From: Candidatus Jordarchaeales archaeon
GTDB taxonomy: Archaea; Asgardarchaeota; Jordiarchaeia; Jordiarchaeales; Freyrarchaeaceae
Reading direction: 5' to 3'
Assembly (NCBI GenBank): GCA_038858525.1
Contig: JAWCFL010000001.1
Location: 60,001-92,000, forward strand
DNA: 32,000 bases
Made by a program: the position numbers and the translations under genes. Under the pieces are notes generated by a model. It did no database searches, was not told the DNA's origin, and saw nothing but the letters and a program-made list of their open reading frames with translations. Of the stretch, positions 4,975-26,410 are shown piece after piece. Every line of letters begins with the position of its first letter. Within the stretch, counting starts at the first letter, position 1.

Positions 4975-6252
4975 TTGGAGTGCATTGAAACGGTAAATGA
5001 CGGAGAGTGCATCCTAATAAAAGGTCCTGCTAACATAGAGGTCAAAGAGGGCAAGGTGAAAGTGCTGGGTGGGACTTTTAACGCAGGAGAACGCATAGTT
5101 ATTCCTAAAGGAAAGGCTCTCCCCTTAAAAGCGTGCACGCCAACTACATTAAAGATTATGTCAAGCAGTATTGAACGGATAAAGGAGGATATACCATCCC
5201 AGTGGCGGATTGCTGTCGAGGAGCTGGACAAGGCTGAGAAGCCTGTGGTGGTCCTCGTTATAGGGGGTGTTGATACCGGCAAAACAACGCTTACAACTCT
5301 TCTAGGAAATATGGCTCTCGAGAGAGGCTTAAGAGTTGCTATTGTGGATGCAGATGTTGGTCAAAGCGACATAGGACCACCATGCTTTGTAGCGATGGGG
5401 TTACTTAATCACCCTGTGTCAGACATGTCAAAGGTTGAATTAAAGGACGCTTACTTTATAGGGTCAACCACACCATCAGCATATCCACATAGAATGATTG
5501 CAGGCGTAAAGTTAATGGTTGAAAGAGCACTTATGCTTGGAAGTGAAGTAGTACTTATCGATACCCCAGGATGGATTTCAGGCTTTAGGGCAAGAGACTT
5601 AAACGTCGCGTTAGTGTATGTTTTGCAACCTTCCATGATCATAGCGCTACAGAATGGAAATGAGGCTGAGGGAATTCTTAAGGCGTTTTCCAGTTCGGAG
5701 ACACGCGTTATAAGGCTTCCGGCTTTAGCGTCATGCAAGAGAGACAGGGAAACGAGAAAGTTCCTCCGCGAGACAGCTTATAGGCGGCACTTAAGTGGAA
5801 GTATAAATGTCGAACTAGACATAGACAGGGTTTCGGTGGTATACACCACGCTGTTCAGCGGAAGTATTTTGAACAGCGACGACAAAAGGAAAATTTCGGA
5901 AGTTCTGGGAATTAACCCGGTATATGCGGAGGCTTCATTCGACACGTTAACTCTGATCTTGCCGAGCGACGTTGATGTAACTCGGGAAAAAATCGAGGCA
6001 TTAAGACTACTATTTAAAGGAAGAGAATTACACTTGCTCCGTGAGACGTCTCTCGAAAATATTCTAGTTGCGCTGCTGGATAGAAAAAACATGTATCTCG
6101 GGGTTGGTATTCTAAAAAAGCTTGACTACGCAGCAAGGAAAATGGTCATCTACACTCCAGTCTCCCCAGATAAGATAGCAACAGTACTTTTTGGGTCAGT
6201 AAAAGTGGTAGAGAACGGTGAAGAAATAGGCTCCATACGTTACGGCTATTAA
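4975..6252 (+). CDS. Clp1/Nol9(Grc3)-family polynucleotide 5'-OH kinase
   Basis: GGVDTGKTT, DADVGQSDIGPP, IDTPGW and an RxxRxxLR lid; N-terminal beta domain as in Clp1. Confidence 0.88.
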   Translation: MECIETVNDGECILIKGPANIEVKEGKVKVLGGTFNAGERIVIPKGKALPLKACTPTTLKIMSSSIERIKEDIPSQWRIAVEELDKAEKPVVVLVIGGVDTGKTTLTTLLGNMALERGLRVAIVDADVGQSDIGPPCFVAMGLLNHPVSDMSKVELKDAYFIGSTTPSAYPHRMIAGVKLMVERALMLGSEVVLIDTPGWISGFRARDLNVALVYVLQPSMIIALQNGNEAEGILKAFSSSETRVIRLPALASCKRDRETRKFLRETAYRRHLSGSINVELDIDRVSVVYTTLFSGSILNSDDKRKISEVLGINPVYAEASFDTLTLILPSDVDVTREKIEALRLLFKGRELHLLRETSLENILVALLDRKNMYLGVGILKKLDYAARKMVIYTPVSPDKIATVLFGSVKVVENGEEIGSIRYGY

Positions 6253-6270
6253 AGTTTAAGGTTTTTCTAT

Positions 6271-7449
6271 TTATTTTAGTCCAAGCCAGATTATGCCACT
6301 AGGCTCCCCATCTTCTTCCATTACTCTGAACGCCTGCTTCAGTAAGCCTATTTCTTCTTCAAGAGTAACGTCTCTGCCTCCTAGACCAGCCACGCATTCA
6401 ATTACAATAGGCATTCCTTTGAAGCCGTAAAGTGTAGCTTTGAGCTCTGAAGCTAGTGCTCCTCCCTTTCCGGGACTAAGGTTTCGGTCTACGACTACGA
6501 TGCACTTGGTCCTCTTTGCAACACGCCTAAGCTCCTCTTCGGGGAATGGCCTGAAAGCCCTAAGCTTTAGGGCTCCAACCTTATATCCTTCCTCTCTCAG
6601 CACGTCAACAGCTACCTTAGCTTGGTCAGCCAGTGATCCCATGGAAAGAAGAATGACGTCAGCGTCGTCACACTTGTACTCTTCTACTAGGTGACCATGG
6701 TTACGCCCAAAAATTTTTTCAAATTCTATCGAACAACGGACTATTTTTTCTTTGGCAGCATCCATAGCTCTATGCATAAGGAATCTAAACTCGTAAAACC
6801 AGTCTTCAGGCATTTGGAGATTTCCATGAGTTATTGGGTTGTCGACATCAACTATGATGTGCCTCCAAGGCTCATGAGGTATGAAGGAGTCTACGTCCTC
6901 CTGGTTAGGAAGTATTACCGGCTGAGCGGTATGACTAATTACGAAACCCTCGAGACACACCATGACGGGAAGAAGGACATTTGGATCCTCAGCAATTTTA
7001 TATGCTTGAATAACCGTGTCAAACGCTTCTTGGTGGTTACTCGTGTAAAGCTGGATCCAGCCCGTGTCCCTCTGAGATACCGAGTCACCATGCTCAGCCC
7101 AAATGTTCCAAGGGGGACCTATAGTTCGATTCACGACAGCCATAACTATTGGAAGCCTAGTGGCAGAGGCCCAGTGAACCATTTCATGCATGTATGCTAG
7201 CCCATGACTACAGGTAGCCGTAAACGTTCTCACTCCAGTTAAACTTGCACCGATACACGCAGCCATAGCCGAGTGTTCAGACTCAACAGGAACGAAGACC
7301 GCTTCTAACTCGCCATTAAGAATGAACTCCGACAGTTTTTCAACTATCCCTGTTTGAGGAGTTATCGGATAACACGAGATGAAGCGTGCCCTGGCCATCT
7401 TAACCGCATATGCGACAGCGTGGTTTCCTGTTAGAATTAGAGTCTCCAT
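6271..7449 (-). CDS. porA: 2-oxoacid (pyruvate/ketoisovalerate):ferredoxin oxidoreductase alpha subunit
   Basis: GNHAVAYAV, YPITPQT, ESEHSAMAA, TATCSHGL and GLGGRDV. The ATG at 7449 is preferred over the TTG at 7476, which overlaps the upstream gene. Confidence 0.9.
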   Translation of the reverse strand: METLILTGNHAVAYAVKMARARFISCYPITPQTGIVEKLSEFILNGELEAVFVPVESEHSAMAACIGASLTGVRTFTATCSHGLAYMHEMVHWASATRLPIVMAVVNRTIGPPWNIWAEHGDSVSQRDTGWIQLYTSNHQEAFDTVIQAYKIAEDPNVLLPVMVCLEGFVISHTAQPVILPNQEDVDSFIPHEPWRHIIVDVDNPITHGNLQMPEDWFYEFRFLMHRAMDAAKEKIVRCSIEFEKIFGRNHGHLVEEYKCDDADVILLSMGSLADQAKVAVDVLREEGYKVGALKLRAFRPFPEEELRRVAKRTKCIVVVDRNLSPGKGGALASELKATLYGFKGMPIVIECVAGLGGRDVTLEEEIGLLKQAFRVMEEDGEPSGIIWLGLK

Positions 7450-16396: not shown

Positions 16397-17962
16397 GTGA
16401 AGTTTGCGTTGAAGGGTTACATGGAGCTCAGTGATAGTATTCCTAATGAGGCGATTGGTGAGATTGAGAGGTTTTTAGGTGATGTTCGTGATGCCCTTTT
16501 CTTGAGGGGTGTTCCTCGTGGACGGGAGAGTGAGGGGGCGCGTCTAATCGGGTGGAGGGTGGAGGGTGATAGGTTCTATGTTGAAATTGAGAGTGGTAGG
16601 TATGTGCGTGCTCATGTTGCTTTTGTTAGGTTGAGAAATGCCCTGGCGGGTTTTCTTGGTTCTAAGTTTAGTGTTGGTGTTCGATCTTGTAGGGTGTTTG
16701 ATTATGTTTTGGAGTTTGAACTTGAAAGAGAGCCCTTGGAGCCTGTGAGTGTTTTGTTTGCGAGGGATATCAAGTTTGACGGTAAGAAGGTTACGGTTTT
16801 CTTGGAGGAGCTGAATGACGAAGCCTTAGAGAAGAATTACCCTGACCGTGTAATAAGTCGGATTCGTGAAAAGGTTTCGAGGCAGCATGTTTCAGGTAAG
16901 GGAGAATTCACTCGCACGGTTAGACGTAATGTTAAAGGATTTGAGAGGTATAAGCTGAGTGAGGACCCAACCGAGGTGGCGGTTAAGCTTGGTTGGGTTA
17001 AAGAGTACCCTGCAGCGGGGATTTGGCAAATTATGCCGCCTATGGCGGCTTTGATTAGAGCTATGGAGGGGCTAATTGTCGACGAGGTTGCTAAACCTCT
17101 CGGGTTCCAAGAGGTTATGCTTCCACGTCTCATTCCACTTGAAGTTGAGTATAGGAAGGGGCATTTCGGAATTGCAAACGAGATTATTTGGGCTTGCCCA
17201 CCAGTTTCCCGGGATCCGAAGGAGTTCGAGGAAATTATGGATTACGTCGAGATAACCGGCGGCCCCCCGCCTGCTGAAATGCTGAGAGAGAAGCTCAGAC
17301 CACCCATGTATGGTCTTTCATATGCTCAGTGTGAGCCCTTCTACGAGATGTTTCATGGGGAGATAGTGGACTTGGACCTTTTAGAGAAGGAGCCAATTAT
17401 GCTTTTTGATAGAAATGGACCGACGTACCGGTGGGAAAGCGGGGGGCTTAGGGGGCTTGAGAGGCTTAATGAGTTTCACAGGGTGGAGCTTGTTTTCCTT
17501 TCAACGCCTGAGAAATGTGTTGAGATAAGGAACGCTATACTTGAGAGGGCGGAAAAAGTTGTTGGCGAGATTCTGGATCTAGATTATAGAGTGGACGCTA
17601 CTACTGCCGTGTATCTTGAACATGCAGGAAAGACCGAGGAGAGAAAGGAGGAAGAGGACTTGGTTAAAACATATGACTTAACTGTTCTCTTGCCTTTCCA
17701 GACAAAAAGCAGGCCTGAAGCTGAACTTGAAGTGGCAAGTTTCCACGTTCACACGGATTTTTATGCCAAACGATTTAGTTTCAAGGATAAGAAAAGAAGG
17801 ACAGTCTTTACCGGGTGTGCTGGACTTGGCCCTTCAAGGTTTGCTTACGTTTTCTTAGTGAGGTATGGATTTGACTTTGAAGGATGGCCTTCTGAGGTCA
17901 AAGGATACATAGGGGACAAGCTTCCTGAGCCGCCACACATGCTGACATGGCCGAAGAGGTAA
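16397..17962 (+). CDS. serS: Seryl-tRNA synthetase, methanogen (type 2, zinc-dependent) form
   Basis: 521 aa with N-terminal ESGRYVRAHVAFVRL; YAQCEPFY, YRWESGG, EFHRVE and GCAGLG supply the Cys/Glu/Cys Zn ligands of mSerRS. Confidence 0.92.
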   Translation: MKFALKGYMELSDSIPNEAIGEIERFLGDVRDALFLRGVPRGRESEGARLIGWRVEGDRFYVEIESGRYVRAHVAFVRLRNALAGFLGSKFSVGVRSCRVFDYVLEFELEREPLEPVSVLFARDIKFDGKKVTVFLEELNDEALEKNYPDRVISRIREKVSRQHVSGKGEFTRTVRRNVKGFERYKLSEDPTEVAVKLGWVKEYPAAGIWQIMPPMAALIRAMEGLIVDEVAKPLGFQEVMLPRLIPLEVEYRKGHFGIANEIIWACPPVSRDPKEFEEIMDYVEITGGPPPAEMLREKLRPPMYGLSYAQCEPFYEMFHGEIVDLDLLEKEPIMLFDRNGPTYRWESGGLRGLERLNEFHRVELVFLSTPEKCVEIRNAILERAEKVVGEILDLDYRVDATTAVYLEHAGKTEERKEEEDLVKTYDLTVLLPFQTKSRPEAELEVASFHVHTDFYAKRFSFKDKKRRTVFTGCAGLGPSRFAYVFLVRYGFDFEGWPSEVKGYIGDKLPEPPHMLTWPKR

Positions 17963-22226: not shown

Positions 22227-22260
22227 AGAAAGGAATGCTAATTGGAGGTGATTAAAAAAG

Positions 22261-24225
22261 ATGGCTGAAAAGGAGAGAAAAGCAGAGGAACCGGTTATTG
22301 GCGTCTACGTGTGCAAGTGAGGAGTAAACATTGGCGGGGTCATAGATGCCGAGGCAGTGGCGGAATACGCAAGTAAGCTACCAAACGTTAAGGTTGCGAA
22401 GACATACTCGTTCTTCTGCTCCGACCCAGGACAAAAGATGATAAAGGAAGACATCGAAACGCAAGGGATTAACAGAGTTGTAGTCGCAGCCTGTACGCCC
22501 AAAATACACGAGCCAACATACAGAGCGTTGCTACAATCAGCGGGACTTAGCCCATACTACCTTGAGATGGTAAACTTAAGAGAGCATTGCTCTTGGGTTC
22601 ACATGACAGATCCACAGTCGGCGACTGAGAAGGCCAAGAAGCTTGTGGCTGCAGGGGTGGCGAGAGCTAGACTGCTCGAAGACGTACCCCAGAAGAGGTT
22701 GCCCGTCGAACCTGCCGTCATGGTTATAGGTGGAGGCATTGCTGGAATAAGTGCTGCTCTGAGTGTTGCAAATCACGGAGTAAAAGTTTACCTTGTGGAG
22801 AAGGAGGCGACCATTGGAGGGCTGGCAGTCCGCTTAGACAGGACTTTTCCAACAGATGACTGCGCCATCTGAATACTTGCGCCGAAAATGGTTGAGGCTG
22901 CCAAGCACCCTAACATCAAAATATTCTCTTACACAGAGGTCTTGGACGTTAAGGGAGTACCGGGATCATACAATGTGAAGCTTCTTAAGAAGCCGAGATA
23001 CGTTGATGAGAAAAAGTGCACAGGGTGCGGCAGCTGCACAGAAGTGTGCCCCGTAGCTGTACCTGACGAGTTTAACTATGGACTGGGCTACAGGAAGGCG
23101 ATCTACATACCCTTCCCCCAGGCTGTGCCCAAAGTTGCGCTAATATCAATGGACGACTGCATCCAATGCAAGTCCTGCCAGAAGGAGTGCAAGGCGGGAG
23201 CAATAGATTACGAGCAGAAACCAGAAGAAATAGAGTTGACCGTTGGAAGCATAATAGTTGCAACGGGATTTGAGATCTACGACATAGCTAAACATGGCGA
23301 CTACGGTTACGGACGGTTCGAGAACGTCATAACTCAAATAGAACTGGAAAGAATGCTAAGCCCCACAGGACCCACCGGAGGAAAGGTCGTTAGGGTCTCG
23401 GATGGAGAGCACCCGAAGCGTATAGCGATGATACAGTGTGTTGGGTCAAGGGACGTGAAGAGGAACCCCTACTGCTCAGAGGTTTGCTGCATGGTCGCCG
23501 TTAAGAACGCCAAGATCATAAAACAGGAAAGCCCTGACACTGAAGTGATCATCTTCTACATGGATATCAGAGGAATAGACGAGGGGCATGAAGAGTACTA
23601 CTTGGCGACGCGCGAATATGGAGTAATGTTTGTAAGAGGAAGAGTGGCAGAGGTTATAGAGGACCCGGAAACCAAGAACCTTAAGCTTCTCGTCGAAAAT
23701 ACTCTCACTGGAGAACTGCTGGAGACAGAAGTAGATCTGTTGGTGCTTTCAGCCGCTGTAGTACCCTCTGAGGGCACGAGGAAAATAGCACAGATCCTAG
23801 GGCTTAATAAGAGGCCAAGTGGCTTCCTAGCACCGCAACACGTGGCACTAAATCCGCAGGAAACAAAAAGTCCGGGGATATACATCTGCGGAGCAGCATT
23901 GGGGCCGAAAAACATACCTTATGCTGTTTCGAGCGCTAGGGCAGCAGCAGCTGCAGCTACCGCATGGACGCTTTCAGGAGAAGTTGCCGTTGAAATGATG
24001 ATCCCAGAGGTTAATGAGGAGCTATGCGTCGGTTGCAGAAGATGTGAAAGAACATGTCCTTTCGGAGCCATAAAGGTCGTGGAGGGAAAAGCAGTGGTTA
24101 GCGAGGTACAGTGTAAGGGGTGCGGTTCATGCGTCGCTTCATGTCCAGCTCATGCTTTAGACATGCGTTACTACAGGGATAGGCAAATCATAGAGGAGAT
24201 AAAGGCGGCGATCAAATCACGCTAG
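22261..24225 (+). CDS. hdrA: Heterodisulfide reductase subunit A, selenoprotein (Sec20 at TGA 22318-22320; Sec204 at TGA 22870-22872), 654 aa
   Basis: One frame from the ATG at 22261 (GGAGGTG SD upstream) through two TGAs: IGVYVCK-U-GVNIGG (canonical CHCG) and TFPTDDCAI-U-ILAP (canonical C..CI). Also FAD motif GGGIAG, ferredoxin motifs and CSEVCCM. Joins track ORFs 22357-22872 and 22888-24225. Confidence 0.95.
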
Positions 24226-24230
24226 CTGAA

Positions 24231-24308
24231 TGGGTCTTGGCCGATGAACACGCTGGAGAAAGCTCAAAGCCCAGCGTGGAAGGCTCTGGCTAGCGGCCAG
24301 ATGACCCA
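24231..24308 (+). ncRNA. SECIS-like 3'-UTR element of hdrA
   Basis: Outer helix UGGGUC-U-UGGCCG/CGGCCA-GAU-GACCCA; AUGAA; helix CACGCUGG/CCAGCGUG; unpaired AGAAA and mini-stem GCU/AGC; GA on the 3' arm. Confidence 0.75.
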
Positions 24309-24397
24309 TCTGCTTCTCTTATTCTTCACTGTAGATGTTTTTGAGGAGTAAATGTTTTATAATACCGTTTGAAACAGTCCACCGAGGTGTTGTTAGT

Positions 24398-24814
24398 ATG
24401 CCCACGCCACGCTTCAGCATAGTGTCTTTCTGTTGCTGGAAGTGAGGCTATGGTGCCAGCGACTTGACAGGAGTTTCTAGGGTTCAGTATGACCCTTCAG
24501 TAATTATAGTGAGAGTGAAGTGCACTGGTAGAGTCGACGTTAAACATATACTGGAAGCGATAAGGCAAGGCGCTGACGGCGTCATGGTCGTTGGTTGACA
24601 CGTCGGCGAATGCGACTTTGGAGATGGGAACGTGAAGGCACGACAACGCGTGGAGTTCGCGAAAAAAGTTCTTGACAAGGTCGGTCTTGGAGGAGACAGG
24701 GTCAACATGTATAACGTTTCAGCGGCTGAAATCGGTAGGTTCAGGGACGCCATAATGGATATGGTTGAAAAACTGGAGAAAATCGGTCCAAACCCATTGA
24801 GGAACAACGAGTAA
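24398..24814 (+). CDS. vhuD: VhuD/MvhD [2Fe-2S] subunit, selenoprotein (Sec16 at TGA 24443-24445; Sec67 at TGA 24596-24598), 138 aa
   Basis: MPTPRFSIVSFCCWK-U-GYGASDLTGVSRVQYDPSVIIVRVKCTGRVD...GADGVMVVG-U-HVGECDF...NVSAAE...GPNPL. Both TGAs fall at conserved MvhD Cys ligand positions; GAGGTG SD upstream. Confidence 0.95.
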
Positions 24815-24833: not shown

Positions 24834-24880
24834 GGGAATGATCCTCAGGCCTAAAGTTAAGTGTCTGAGGTGACTGGCCC
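24834..24880 (+). ncRNA. Eukaryote-type SECIS-like element 3' of vhuD
   Basis: Core AUGA-U/U-GA-C (24838-24842/24871-24874), helix CCUCAGGC..CU/AG.G.UCUGAGG and apical loop AAAGUUA. Confidence 0.75.
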
Positions 24881-24896
24881 TCGTAAGCGGTGGGCC
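24875..24896 (+). other. GC hairpin downstream of the vhuD SECIS
   Basis: TGGCCC-N11-GGGCCA inverted repeat; function unknown (possible RNA end or stability element). Confidence 0.35.
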
Positions 24897-24991
24897 AAAT
24901 CAAAAATAAATGATAAAGCATTACTTGTTGAGAAATAAGTGAGGCGATCTGACGTGTTGCGGTTTAGCTTTAGTTGCGGAGGGTGCCTGGC

Positions 24992-26410
24992 TTGAGTGAA
25001 CTTAGGAGAAGAGTTGATGCTATTACGGAGGCTGCGGACAGCTTTAGGGTAAGAGCGTTTTTCACTGGAGAAAAAGAGATAGTAGAGGCAGGGAAGTTTT
25101 CTAAGGGAGAGTACGAAAGATACTTGGATTACTTGCTAGAAGACGAGTTTAGGAGACGGCTTGTGCTCGGAGTTATAAGAGAAGGAGAGGGACTAACAAT
25201 AGAAGAGATAGCTCATAGAACAGGGTTTTCCAAGCTTGAAGTGGCTAGGCATGTTAATGCGTTAAGATACGAAGAATTAGTCGAATGTAAAGATGACGGA
25301 CTCGTAATTACCAGGAAGGAAGAACAGCGAAAAGTGCCTTATGAGAAAATAAAGTTCATTGTTGAAGAGGGATTATGCACTGGGTGCGGTGGATGCATTG
25401 CGGCTTGCCCGGTTTACGCCATAACTTTCATTGATGAGAAGCCTGTGATAGATGAAGGCAAATGTATAGGTTGCGGTATTTGCAACATTCACTGCCCTAG
25501 AACATTCTTCCCCATAAGCATGATTAGGGAAAGCTTGAAGGGCAGCCCTGTCAACGTGGAAACAGAGGGCGTATCGTTCTTTAGGCAAGCTTACACTGCA
25601 CAGACGGCCAAGGAGAAAGTGAAGCAGGTTTGCCAAGACGGAGGAATAGTGACTTCCATTCTAGCATATCTTTTCGATAAGGGAATGATAGACTGCGCTA
25701 TAGGCGTCAGAAAGGCGGATGAATATTGGAGGACGCAGGCAACGTTAGTTACTAACTTAGAGGAGCTACTTGGAATTGCAGGAACTAAGTATACGGTGAC
25801 TCCTTCAGTTTCCTTGTTGGAGGAAGTTAAGAGAAGGGGCTTTAGAAGAGTTGCTGTTGTTGGGGTTCCTTGCCAGATACATACTGTTAGAAAAGCTGAG
25901 GCTTACTCCTCTGAGCTCTTGTCGTCCCTTGGAGAGATTGTAGCTTTAATAGGGATTTTCTGCATGGAAAACTTCGGGTACATTGCCCTTAGAGAAATAG
26001 TTGAAAACCGTCTCGGCGTTAAACTCGAAGATGTTGCTAAGTTTAACATAGATAAAGGAAAGTTCTTTGCCCACACTAAAAATGGTGAAGAAAGATCGAT
26101 ACCAGTTAAAGAGATATCCATGTTAGCGAGGCATGCATGCCACTACTGCCCCGACTTAACTAATGAGTTAGCAGACATATCTGTTGGGTCTATAGGATCT
26201 TCGAAGGGATGGTCAACAGTGCTGGTAAGGACTAAGCGAGGGGAAGAAATATTTGAAGGAGCTTTAAGGGAGGGCTATGTAACCGCTAATCCGCTTCCGG
26301 ACGCCAGCATGGAGCTACTTCAGAAGCTGGCCAAGGGAAAAAGAAAGAGAAATCTTGAAGCATTAAGCGAGAGAGCAAGAGAGGGAAAATATGCAACACT
26401 AGTCATTTAA
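24992..26410 (+). CDS. Winged-HTH + 2x[4Fe-4S] ferredoxin + F420-binding FrhB/FdhB-family protein
   Basis: TTG at 24992 after GGAGGGTG. LTIEEIAHRTGFSKLEVARHVNAL (HTH); CTGCGGCIAACP and CIGCGICNIHCP; QDGGIVT, GTKY, VGVPCQ, GIFCMENF and CHYCPDLTNELADISVGSIGS. Confidence 0.88.
   Translation: MSELRRRVDAITEAADSFRVRAFFTGEKEIVEAGKFSKGEYERYLDYLLEDEFRRRLVLGVIREGEGLTIEEIAHRTGFSKLEVARHVNALRYEELVECKDDGLVITRKEEQRKVPYEKIKFIVEEGLCTGCGGCIAACPVYAITFIDEKPVIDEGKCIGCGICNIHCPRTFFPISMIRESLKGSPVNVETEGVSFFRQAYTAQTAKEKVKQVCQDGGIVTSILAYLFDKGMIDCAIGVRKADEYWRTQATLVTNLEELLGIAGTKYTVTPSVSLLEEVKRRGFRRVAVVGVPCQIHTVRKAEAYSSELLSSLGEIVALIGIFCMENFGYIALREIVENRLGVKLEDVAKFNIDKGKFFAHTKNGEERSIPVKEISMLARHACHYCPDLTNELADISVGSIGSSKGWSTVLVRTKRGEEIFEGALREGYVTANPLPDASMELLQKLAKGKRKRNLEALSERAREGKYATLVI

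Follow-up and report, generated by a model that had tools for sequence, protein, structure and literature searches.

The gene hdrA discussed here lies on the forward strand of a 32,000-nt stretch of DNA (the window; contig JAWCFL010000001.1 of assembly GCA_038858525.1, positions 60,001 to 92,000) from a hot-spring archaeon of the Candidatus Jordarchaeales (Asgardarchaeota). Its reading frame contains two in-frame TGA codons, and it is followed by a structured RNA in its 3' untranslated region (UTR) and by a second UGA-bearing gene, mvhD (vhuD). Both hdrA UGAs very probably encode selenocysteine (Sec, U), and the RNA in the spacer between the two genes contains a predicted selenocysteine insertion sequence (SECIS). 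The gene and its RNA element comprise the following features:

22244-22251, + strand: Shine-Dalgarno-like sequence GGAGGTGA, 9 nt 5' of the hdrA ATG, read from the sequence
22261-24225, + strand: hdrA coding sequence, 654 codons, HdrA2-like with MvhD unfused, two predicted Sec codons
24229-24309, + strand: three-way-junction RNA in the hdrA 3' UTR, minimum free energy (MFE) fold, conserved in all 10 loci compared
24230-24236 paired with 24303-24309, + strand: outer helix of the junction
24239-24285, + strand: SECIS arm of the junction, with its lower stem
24244-24280, + strand: SECIS core and helix II (AUGA 24244-24247, helix 24249-24256/24271-24278, GA 24279-24280)
24286-24300, + strand: second small hairpin of the junction

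When TGA is read as U, the hdrA frame yields a single product of 654 residues with U20 (TGA 22318-22320, motif V-C-K-U-G) and U204 (TGA 22870-22872, motif D-C-A-I-U) and TAG at 24223-24225 as its sole stop; its translation has no frameshifts or further stops, and the strand opposite hdrA holds no comparable frame. Under translation table 11 the gene breaks into two open reading frames (ORFs), 22357-22872 and 22888-24225, in agreement with an initial annotation of this DNA according to which automated calling fragments the gene. In phmmer searches against the PDB the product matches the solved HdrA chains 8rvu_a (E 9e-237) and 5odc_A (E 3e-234), and it is colinear with solved HdrA over a single stretch from residue 3 to residue 652 at approximately 55-60% identity, which bears out the single HdrA gene of the original proposal, in which two Sec residues had been predicted, one of them in the N-terminal C-x-C-G motif. 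Pfam detects Pyr_redox_2/FAD matches, with an FAD/Rossmann signature, and three Fer4 regions, and the protein shows the four-domain architecture of HdrA with an N-terminal Fe-S domain, a thioredoxin-reductase-like FAD domain, an inserted ferredoxin and a C-terminal ferredoxin. The set of HdrA cysteines is complete (the N-terminal C-x-C-G, the C-x-x-C near the FAD and the C...C-x-x-C-C of the reductase-domain cluster), with U taking the second Cys place of both the C-x-C-G and the C-x-x-C in the alignment to 8rvu.

The best NCBIfam model for the product is HdrA2 with 869 bits, followed by HdrA with 658 and Methanobacteria HdrA with 633, and all three scores fall below the equivalog cut-offs of 1100, 1400 and 1300, respectively. 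The cut-offs are missed because the models span 762-777 positions and include a C-terminal MvhD-like part that is encoded here by a separate gene; judged by these profiles, membership of the HdrA family stands and equivalog status does not. The match to the Methanosarcina HdrA2 model (NF040770) covers profile positions 2-642 and the downstream MvhD corresponds to positions 649-774, HdrA and MvhD being fused in Methanosarcina but encoded here by two genes with a SECIS-bearing spacer between them. By HdrA identity the nearest genomic relatives are metagenome-assembled genomes (MAGs) of Candidatus Jordarchaeum at 96%, together with other Jordarchaeia and, at 70-72%, Freyarchaeota. The source assembly comprises 2.09 Mb in 63 contigs and is estimated to be 92.7% complete.

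The two UGA codons were compared with nine hdrA orthologues from Jord- and Freyarchaeia and with a wider set of about 50 homologues that belong to other Asgard classes and Bathyarchaeota. At codon 204 each of the nine orthologues has TGA, as has one Bathyarchaeota homologue, and codon 20 is TGA in eight of the nine, with TGC in the nearest of them (L021, the Candidatus Jordarchaeum MAG LHC_1308). The other homologues carry TGT or TGC at both codons, save for two with Asp at 204, and both TGAs align with Cys residues of the solved HdrA structures. The placement of the two TGAs at conserved Cys positions and the alternation of TGA and Cys codons among orthologues, the one asserted and the other suggested as a check in the initial annotation, are thus both observed. 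Substitutions relative to L021 fall on codon positions 1/2/3 in the numbers 6/1/66 within codons 21-203 and 19/10/153 within codons 205-654, a third-position concentration seen in both long segments flanking UGA-204. Therefore hdrA displays the pattern of a selenoprotein gene, namely in-frame UGAs that occupy the Cys positions of homologues, are conserved and are flanked on either side by codons under purifying selection.

Both TGAs are unchanged in contigs from two DNA runs of other studies (X9 and X10, the former flagged as a possible source of the window DNA), in keeping with the earlier view that they are not errors. A 1,862-nt contig from a metatranscriptome library, representing a slightly different strain, covers 22334-24195 with TGA-204 intact and with 13 differences that all fall at third positions; RNA libraries may contain DNA, and the RNA contigs skip 22235-22333, hence the first UGA lies outside RNA coverage. 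Genome-wide TGA closes 260 of 870 long open frames (30%), and as an ordinary stop codon it is therefore not globally reassigned, so that the recoding is site-specific.

The three-way-junction RNA begins 6 nt past the hdrA stop and folds with -41.2 kcal/mol (z -2.6, MFE), and the SECIS core lies 19 nt past the stop. The SECIS arm has an 8-bp helix and a 14-nt apical loop (24257-24270) opening with AGAAAG, and it carries the hallmarks of the Asgard eSECIS-like type I elements, that is AUGA immediately 5' and GA 3' of the helix, a loop that opens A-rich and a position near the stop codon. Measured to the AUGA at 24244, the UGA of codon 20 is 1,924 nt and the UGA of codon 204 is 1,372 nt away, so that the distance of more than 1.9 kb originally given between the N-terminal site and the 3' hairpin is correct. 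SECIS elements that reside in the 3' UTR and act at long range are normal in archaea and eukaryotes alike. The accompanying claim of a long-range, eukaryote-style recoding consequently holds in so far as the 3'-UTR SECIS is eukaryote-like and covaries, but it is overstated as regards the range, and the distance is not a special feature since a span of ~2 kb has already been proposed for the Loki hdrA-vhuD pair by Mariotti et al. (2016, PMC4989117).

The junction architecture opens the hdrA-mvhD spacer in all ten loci (the window and nine orthologous loci), where the spacer measures 107-253 nt (172 nt here); the helix sequences diverge with complementarity kept, the core reads A/G-U-G-A (AUGG in L023) and the apical loop has 12-14 nt. 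A covariance model built solely from the six Freyarchaeia-type elements recovers the four held-out Jordarchaeia-type elements at full length and with E of about 1e-9, the window element with 41 bits and an E-value of ~5e-9. In the alignment guided by the model, 98% of cells are paired and 12 of the 20 pairs change on both sides, including all eight pairs of the SECIS helix, whereas sliding the partners by 1-3 columns as a control lowers pairing to 21-44%; these figures come from an alignment fitted to the structure and from ten sequences that amount to about three clades. RNAalifold run on a plain MAFFT alignment recovered the second hairpin only, since the two clades have their SECIS helices in different registers there, a problem that was solved by the covariance-model alignment. 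A scan of the window against Rfam at gathering thresholds gave no match, which is uninformative as Rfam apparently has no Asgard SECIS family. A strict SECIS pattern searched on both strands of the 2.09-Mb genome matches only twice, at window positions 24244 and 24838, directly 3' of the two UGA-bearing genes hdrA and mvhD, and finds nothing in three shuffled genomes. The pattern misses the SECIS of other selenoprotein genes of the genome (e.g. selD and a second mvhD) and is thus specific but not sensitive.

Several further observations concern the architecture of the element. An RNA-library contig of a related strain has a C to U change at 24251 that turns a C-G pair into a U-G wobble and keeps the pairing, and orthologue L022 has a fully compensated U-A at this very pair. 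In a third Asgard family (L105 2041-2167, L106 and L118) the spacer between hdrA and mvhD measures 125 nt and holds a three-way RNA resembling the present one, with AGGA instead of AUGA as the core of its SECIS arm, and the mvhD genes at these loci have a lokiSECIS of their own. A second small hairpin follows many Asgard SECIS arms, including those of the Loki type (downstream of mvhD in L100, L102, L107, L112 and L113, and in the window at 24875-24897); its loop often contains AGC, and an outer helix encloses the SECIS arm together with this hairpin. The accessible portions of the SECIS papers make no mention of a three-way junction around a SECIS.

Downstream of the spacer the locus continues with three features:

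24398-24814, + strand: mvhD/vhuD, 138 codons, predicted Sec at codon 16 (24443-24445) and codon 67 (24596-24598)
24838-24873, + strand: SECIS of mvhD itself, with AUGA 24838-24841, an 8-bp helix, a loop CUAAAG... and UGA; a second hairpin then extends to 24897
24974-26410, + strand: FrhB/FdhB-like flavin/F420-binding iron-sulfur protein (Pfam FrhB_FdhB_N, FrhB_FdhB_C and two Fer4 motifs)

The mvhD product scores 178 bits with the NCBIfam VhuD model, and U16 (in C-W-K-U-G) and U67 (in V-G-U-H) coincide with two X positions (non-standard residues) of the solved VhuD chain 9sfi_K; together with the two TGAs of hdrA, these codons make up the four TGAs that the initial annotation had counted. The FrhB/FdhB-like gene is the probable third gene of a hdrA-mvhD module. 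No hdrBC genes are adjacent to hdrA, the neighbours of which are mvhD and the FrhB-like gene, and at least 12 genes with CCG domains (HdrB/D-like) are located at other places of the genome, where some adjoin further HdrA paralogues. By its gene content the module of this non-methanogen looks like the HdrA2-MvhD-FrhB type of Methanosarcina and ANME and not like the classic Mvh-Hdr operon.

The locus therefore very probably holds a single functional hdrA of a Candidatus Jordarchaeum-like Asgard archaeon, the two UGAs of which are decoded as Sec by the archaeal/eukaryal pathway with the help of the spacer SECIS. A eukaryote-like SECIS of the Asgard type, forming one arm of the three-way junction, would act on UGAs 1.37 and 1.92 kb upstream, and the two further Sec codons of the downstream mvhD would be served by its own, second SECIS. 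The spacer element would work like a lokiSECIS, yet it departs from the published geometry and arrangement, which in Mariotti et al. (2016) consist of a 9-bp helix, an 11-nt loop and one element common to hdrA and vhuD.

The genome encodes part of the machinery that such decoding calls for, with a SelD that scores above its family cut-off and carries its own Sec in the G-U-x-C-K motif (G-U-A-C-K), and a PSTK-like gene that matches the archaeal PSTK family best, with 173 bits against a cut-off of 290. Several points weigh against the interpretation given above. Both the insertion of selenium at the hdrA UGAs and the service of hdrA by the spacer element rather than by the mvhD element are inferred. 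Profile searches did not find EFSec or SepSecS in the assembly. For tRNA-Sec, ARAGORN (window and genome) and RF01852 (genome and five relatives) returned only sub-threshold matches, one of them Leu-like. In addition, selD (L006 1501-2541; contig C2 ~6105-7145) contains a short insert with an in-frame TAA (...SDVYSAATCGLRA*AKGATEIAG...), which may be a tRNA-type mini-intron or an assembly error, and the integrity of selD depends on splicing or on a sequence error accordingly.

Among the candidates considered for the missing factors, the TIGR00475 matches in the genome are only EF-1alpha, aIF2-gamma, an aIF5B-like gene and EF-2, and the PF05889 match considered for SepSecS is SepCysS; PF21208 and PF21131, used in the search for EFSec, matched nothing in this genome or in the control genomes and are hence uninformative. 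SepSecS is present in all ten relatives (three genomes of the same genus, one of the same family and six of the same order), and in the three relatives checked, drawn from the same genus, family and order, a SelB/EFSec gene above cut-off lies directly upstream of it (e.g. G002 C1 350598-353269). Synteny with a genome of the same genus extends on one side to the end of contig C26 and sets in again on the other side 1.3 kb away from the contig C18 end, and the EFSec-SepSecS pair falls in the ~21-kb stretch between these contig ends. One assembly gap would therefore account for both absences and is their most likely cause, as judged from gene order. The genome sequence also contains 43 runs of 92-100 N (~97), which are probably masked tRNA genes, and because of this masking the tRNA-Sec searches are no evidence of absence. 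The check for Sec machinery that had been suggested with the original claim is thus answered in part, SelD and a PSTK-like gene having been found, EFSec and SepSecS not, and the tRNA genes being apparently masked. For Jordarchaeia, including MAG LHC_1308, tRNA-Sec and a complete Sec machinery have been reported (Sun et al. 2021, PMC9723677).

Some observations on the translation apparatus stand beside these results. One of the N runs (C18:24601-24699) lies ~100 nt 3' of the PSTK-like gene and could be tRNA-Sec, and with PSTK on contig C18 the Sec machinery genes appear loosely clustered. A SepRS-like class II tRNA synthetase is encoded in the window (16397-17962, + strand; tRNA_bind_4 and a class II core) and SepCysS at C17:13822-15024, and judging from these genes the organism makes Cys-tRNA by the phosphoserine route. 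This route has an intermediate in common with Sec synthesis. The EF-2 gene (L017 1725-1790; C4 ~81115-81180) has a stop-bearing insert of ~40 nt just 3' of the D-T-P-G-H-V motif, which is flanked by repeated CCGGGCACGT and after which in-frame translation resumes with ...TGHVTRALRVIDG; this insert may be a bulge-helix-bulge mini-intron, here within one of the core genes of translation.

The most serious alternative is that the SECIS downstream of mvhD serves both hdrA UGAs as in Lokiarchaeota, and that the spacer RNA functions in processing, stability or translational coupling. Loki-type hdrA-mvhD pairs indeed have no spacer element and one lokiSECIS after mvhD (PMC4989117, PMC11227280), and RNA-library contigs that span hdrA, the spacer and mvhD are compatible with one transcript. 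The spacer RNA, however, combines all the hallmarks of a SECIS (AUGA, a covarying helix of 8-9 bp, an A-rich loop and GA), and its motif is one of two in the genome and is kept in all ten orthologous loci, which renders this alternative unlikely. Considerably less likely again is a read-through of the UGAs without selenium, by which a near-cognate or mischarged tRNA would insert Cys or Trp either constantly or when selenium is scarce. It is true that Cys is acceptable at both sites (it stands at codon 20 in the nearest relative L021 and at both codons in most homologues) and that Sec in this HdrA is predicted from the sequence, but such read-through would leave a conserved and dedicated SECIS to be explained along with the retention of a Sec-containing SelD and a PSTK-like gene, and it also sits poorly with the frequent use of TGA as a genuine stop in this genome and with the Sec seen structurally at the homologous site in M. 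maripaludis (PMC13518236).

The two ORFs given by gene callers would also be expected if hdrA were a pseudogene or if the TGAs were sequencing or assembly errors. The same TGAs recur in eight to nine independently assembled orthologues (70-96% protein identity) and in the contigs of other studies, substitutions show third-position bias on both sides, and the frame is free of frameshifts and of other stops; the pseudogene and error readings are therefore excluded for practical purposes. Decoding of both hdrA UGAs as Sec with the aid of the spacer SECIS accordingly remains the preferred explanation.

Multi-Sec HdrA proteins are known from Lokiarchaeota, for which the initial annotation had cited multi-Sec selenoproteins, and Mariotti et al. 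(2016, PMC4989117) describe Sec at conserved Cys positions throughout, a vhuD with two Sec that follows directly downstream and, after this vhuD, one eukaryote-like lokiSECIS that is proposed to serve up to six UGAs over ~2 kb. In more than 400 Asgard genomes hdrA and frhD are described by Huang et al. (2024, PMC11227280) as always being neighbours with very short spacers, almost all with one common element. The locus described here resembles these Loki and other Asgard hdrA-vhuD pairs in having Sec near residue 200 and a further Sec at a conserved Cys, a two-Sec vhuD on the same strand, a SECIS with AUGA, A-rich loop and GA core, a hdrA that ends in TAA or TAG and a reach of ~2 kb. It differs from the Loki-type pairs, which have spacers of 11-50 nt and one SECIS after vhuD, in its longer spacer with a second, hdrA-specific SECIS, and the 8-bp helix and 14-nt loop opening with AGAAAG differ from the 9 bp and 11 nt opening with AAAAA of the Loki type.

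For a broader view 150 other Asgard genomes were surveyed and 20 multi-UGA HdrA paralogues of several families were taken from 20 of them. All 20 have Sec at both positions of the window hdrA (20 and 204); an extra Sec occurs at the position of window C78 in four (L102, L103, L104 and L113) and of C53 in one (L114), and the first Cys of C-x-C-G is never Sec in the 21 UGA-bearing HdrA genes besides that of the window. For 19 of the sampled paralogues an mvhD could be detected. Fifteen of them have an 11-50-nt spacer without a SECIS, and in most of these 15 Loki-type pairs a lokiSECIS (8-9 bp helix and 11-nt loop opening with AAAAA) follows mvhD. The N-terminal C-K-U-G, which had been presented as an unusual site, was thus overrated, since the survey makes C-x-U-G the most frequent additional Sec site of Asgard HdrA, so that it cannot be new. 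From the same 20 paralogues it may be inferred that C-x-U-G is among the five positions of Mariotti et al. (2016).

The selenoproteins of Jordarchaeia were given as HdrA, MvhD and Prx, with the SECIS elements of these genes located 30-500 nt downstream, the main text stating neither number nor position of the Sec residues (Sun et al. 2021, PMC9723677). The HdrA of that study belongs to the same class as the present one and, in MAG LHC_1308 (L021, HdrA 96% identical), to the same genus. LHC_1308 has Cys at HdrA codon 20 and MvhD codon 67, in contrast to the window genome with Sec at both, and these are recent Sec/Cys switches within one genus.

The HdrA proteins of Methanococcales (5odc, 8rvu, 9sfi; PMC13518236, PMC13580544, PMC12350162) share the four domains at ~55-60% identity and, like the window protein, place Sec or Cys (position 197/205) within the C-x-x-C/U pair that adjoins the bifurcating FAD. 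The two Sec positions of their VhuD are those of the mvhD product, and each gene has a 3'-UTR SECIS. Methanococcal HdrA differs in having a single Sec (PMC4989117) and a SECIS of the archaeal type. The methanogen enzyme further differs in acting with HdrBC and the Vhu/Mvh hydrogenase on CoM-S-S-CoB, whereas the operon here continues with a FrhB-like gene. The separate SECIS for hdrA recalls the methanococcal layout of one SECIS per gene but with eukaryote-like cores.

As regards the role of Sec in the enzyme, colinear alignment equates U204 with Cys197 of 5odc (M. thermolithotrophicus/M. wolfeii structure) and with Sec197 of M. maripaludis, the latter observed by cryo-EM (PMC13518236), in agreement with the earlier statement that Sec near residue 200 is known from methanococcal HdrA. 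In the crystal structure Cys197 of one HdrA ligates the N-terminal [4Fe-4S] cluster of the partner HdrA (Chadwick et al. 2022, PMC9012536). According to two cryo-EM papers of 2026 the C-x-x-C/U pair has the clusters of the mobile arm on one side and the bifurcating FAD on the other; an unidentified density bound to the pair is reported in one paper and a Se-S bond in the other, and both leave its role unresolved (PMC13518236, PMC13580544). Cys16 of MvhD is a conserved extra cysteine at the C-x-x-C/U site (PMC13580544), and this residue is U16 in the mvhD product. The open papers do not state the N-terminal Cys ligands of cluster HA3. By analogy U204 would take the second place in the C-x-x-C/U pair next to the bifurcating FAD, and U20 would lie in the mobile N-terminal domain that bears HA3, a [4Fe-4S] cluster with a shuttle function.

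A profile-profile alignment of MvhD with HdrA's N-terminal domain pairs U16 with U20, C42 with C53 and U67 with C78. The pairing of HdrA 20 with MvhD 16 is weak in hhalign (E 3.5e-4, probability 16%), and BLASTP of MvhD against HdrA's N-terminal domain gives E 12. The Sec sites of the sampled Asgard HdrA proteins are confined to conserved Cys positions of the mobile N-terminal domain (20, 78 and 53) and to the flavin-side pair (204), and Sec residues would therefore cluster where the mobile arm exchanges electrons with the flavin. If the MvhD-HdrA alignment is right, every Sec site observed in Asgard HdrA and MvhD belongs either to the cysteines surrounding the two mobile-arm clusters or to the flavin-side pair, and this suggests that selenium assists the hand-over of electrons at the junction of mobile arm and flavin. 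On the same premise it is conceivable, though rather doubtful, that U20, U204 of the partner protomer and MvhD U16 form a selenium-based relay for the bifurcating flavin, which could operate by selenylsulfide/diselenide exchange or by an exchangeable selenolate ligation of the HA3 shuttle cluster. Such a relay, if true, would carry electrons into and out of the bifurcating flavin, the step that the 2026 cryo-EM papers call unresolved.

Overall, this predicted two-Sec HdrA with a 3'-UTR SECIS, from an Asgard lineage already known to use Sec, is a well-supported example and not a discovery, because multi-Sec Asgard HdrA has been in the literature since 2016 (Mariotti et al. 2016; Sun et al. 2021; Huang et al. 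2024). To this picture the pattern of Sec positions adds a little, and so does the hdrA-specific SECIS, which is a modest variant and no new mechanism. Standard gene callers fragment the hdrA and mvhD genes of Asgard archaea, and HdrA-type complexes are consequently under-counted in such genomes. The Sec positions point to the cysteines that recent cryo-EM work has linked with the still unresolved passage of electrons between the clusters of the mobile arm and the bifurcating flavin. The separate hdrA SECIS of Jord- and Freyarchaeia qualifies the published view of an always very short spacer with a shared SECIS and is relevant to the proposal that, historically, the SECIS of hdrA gave way to that of vhuD. 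If true, a hdrA-specific SECIS within a three-way junction would represent an intermediate between the methanococcal arrangement of one element per gene and the shared arrangement of the Lokiarchaeota.

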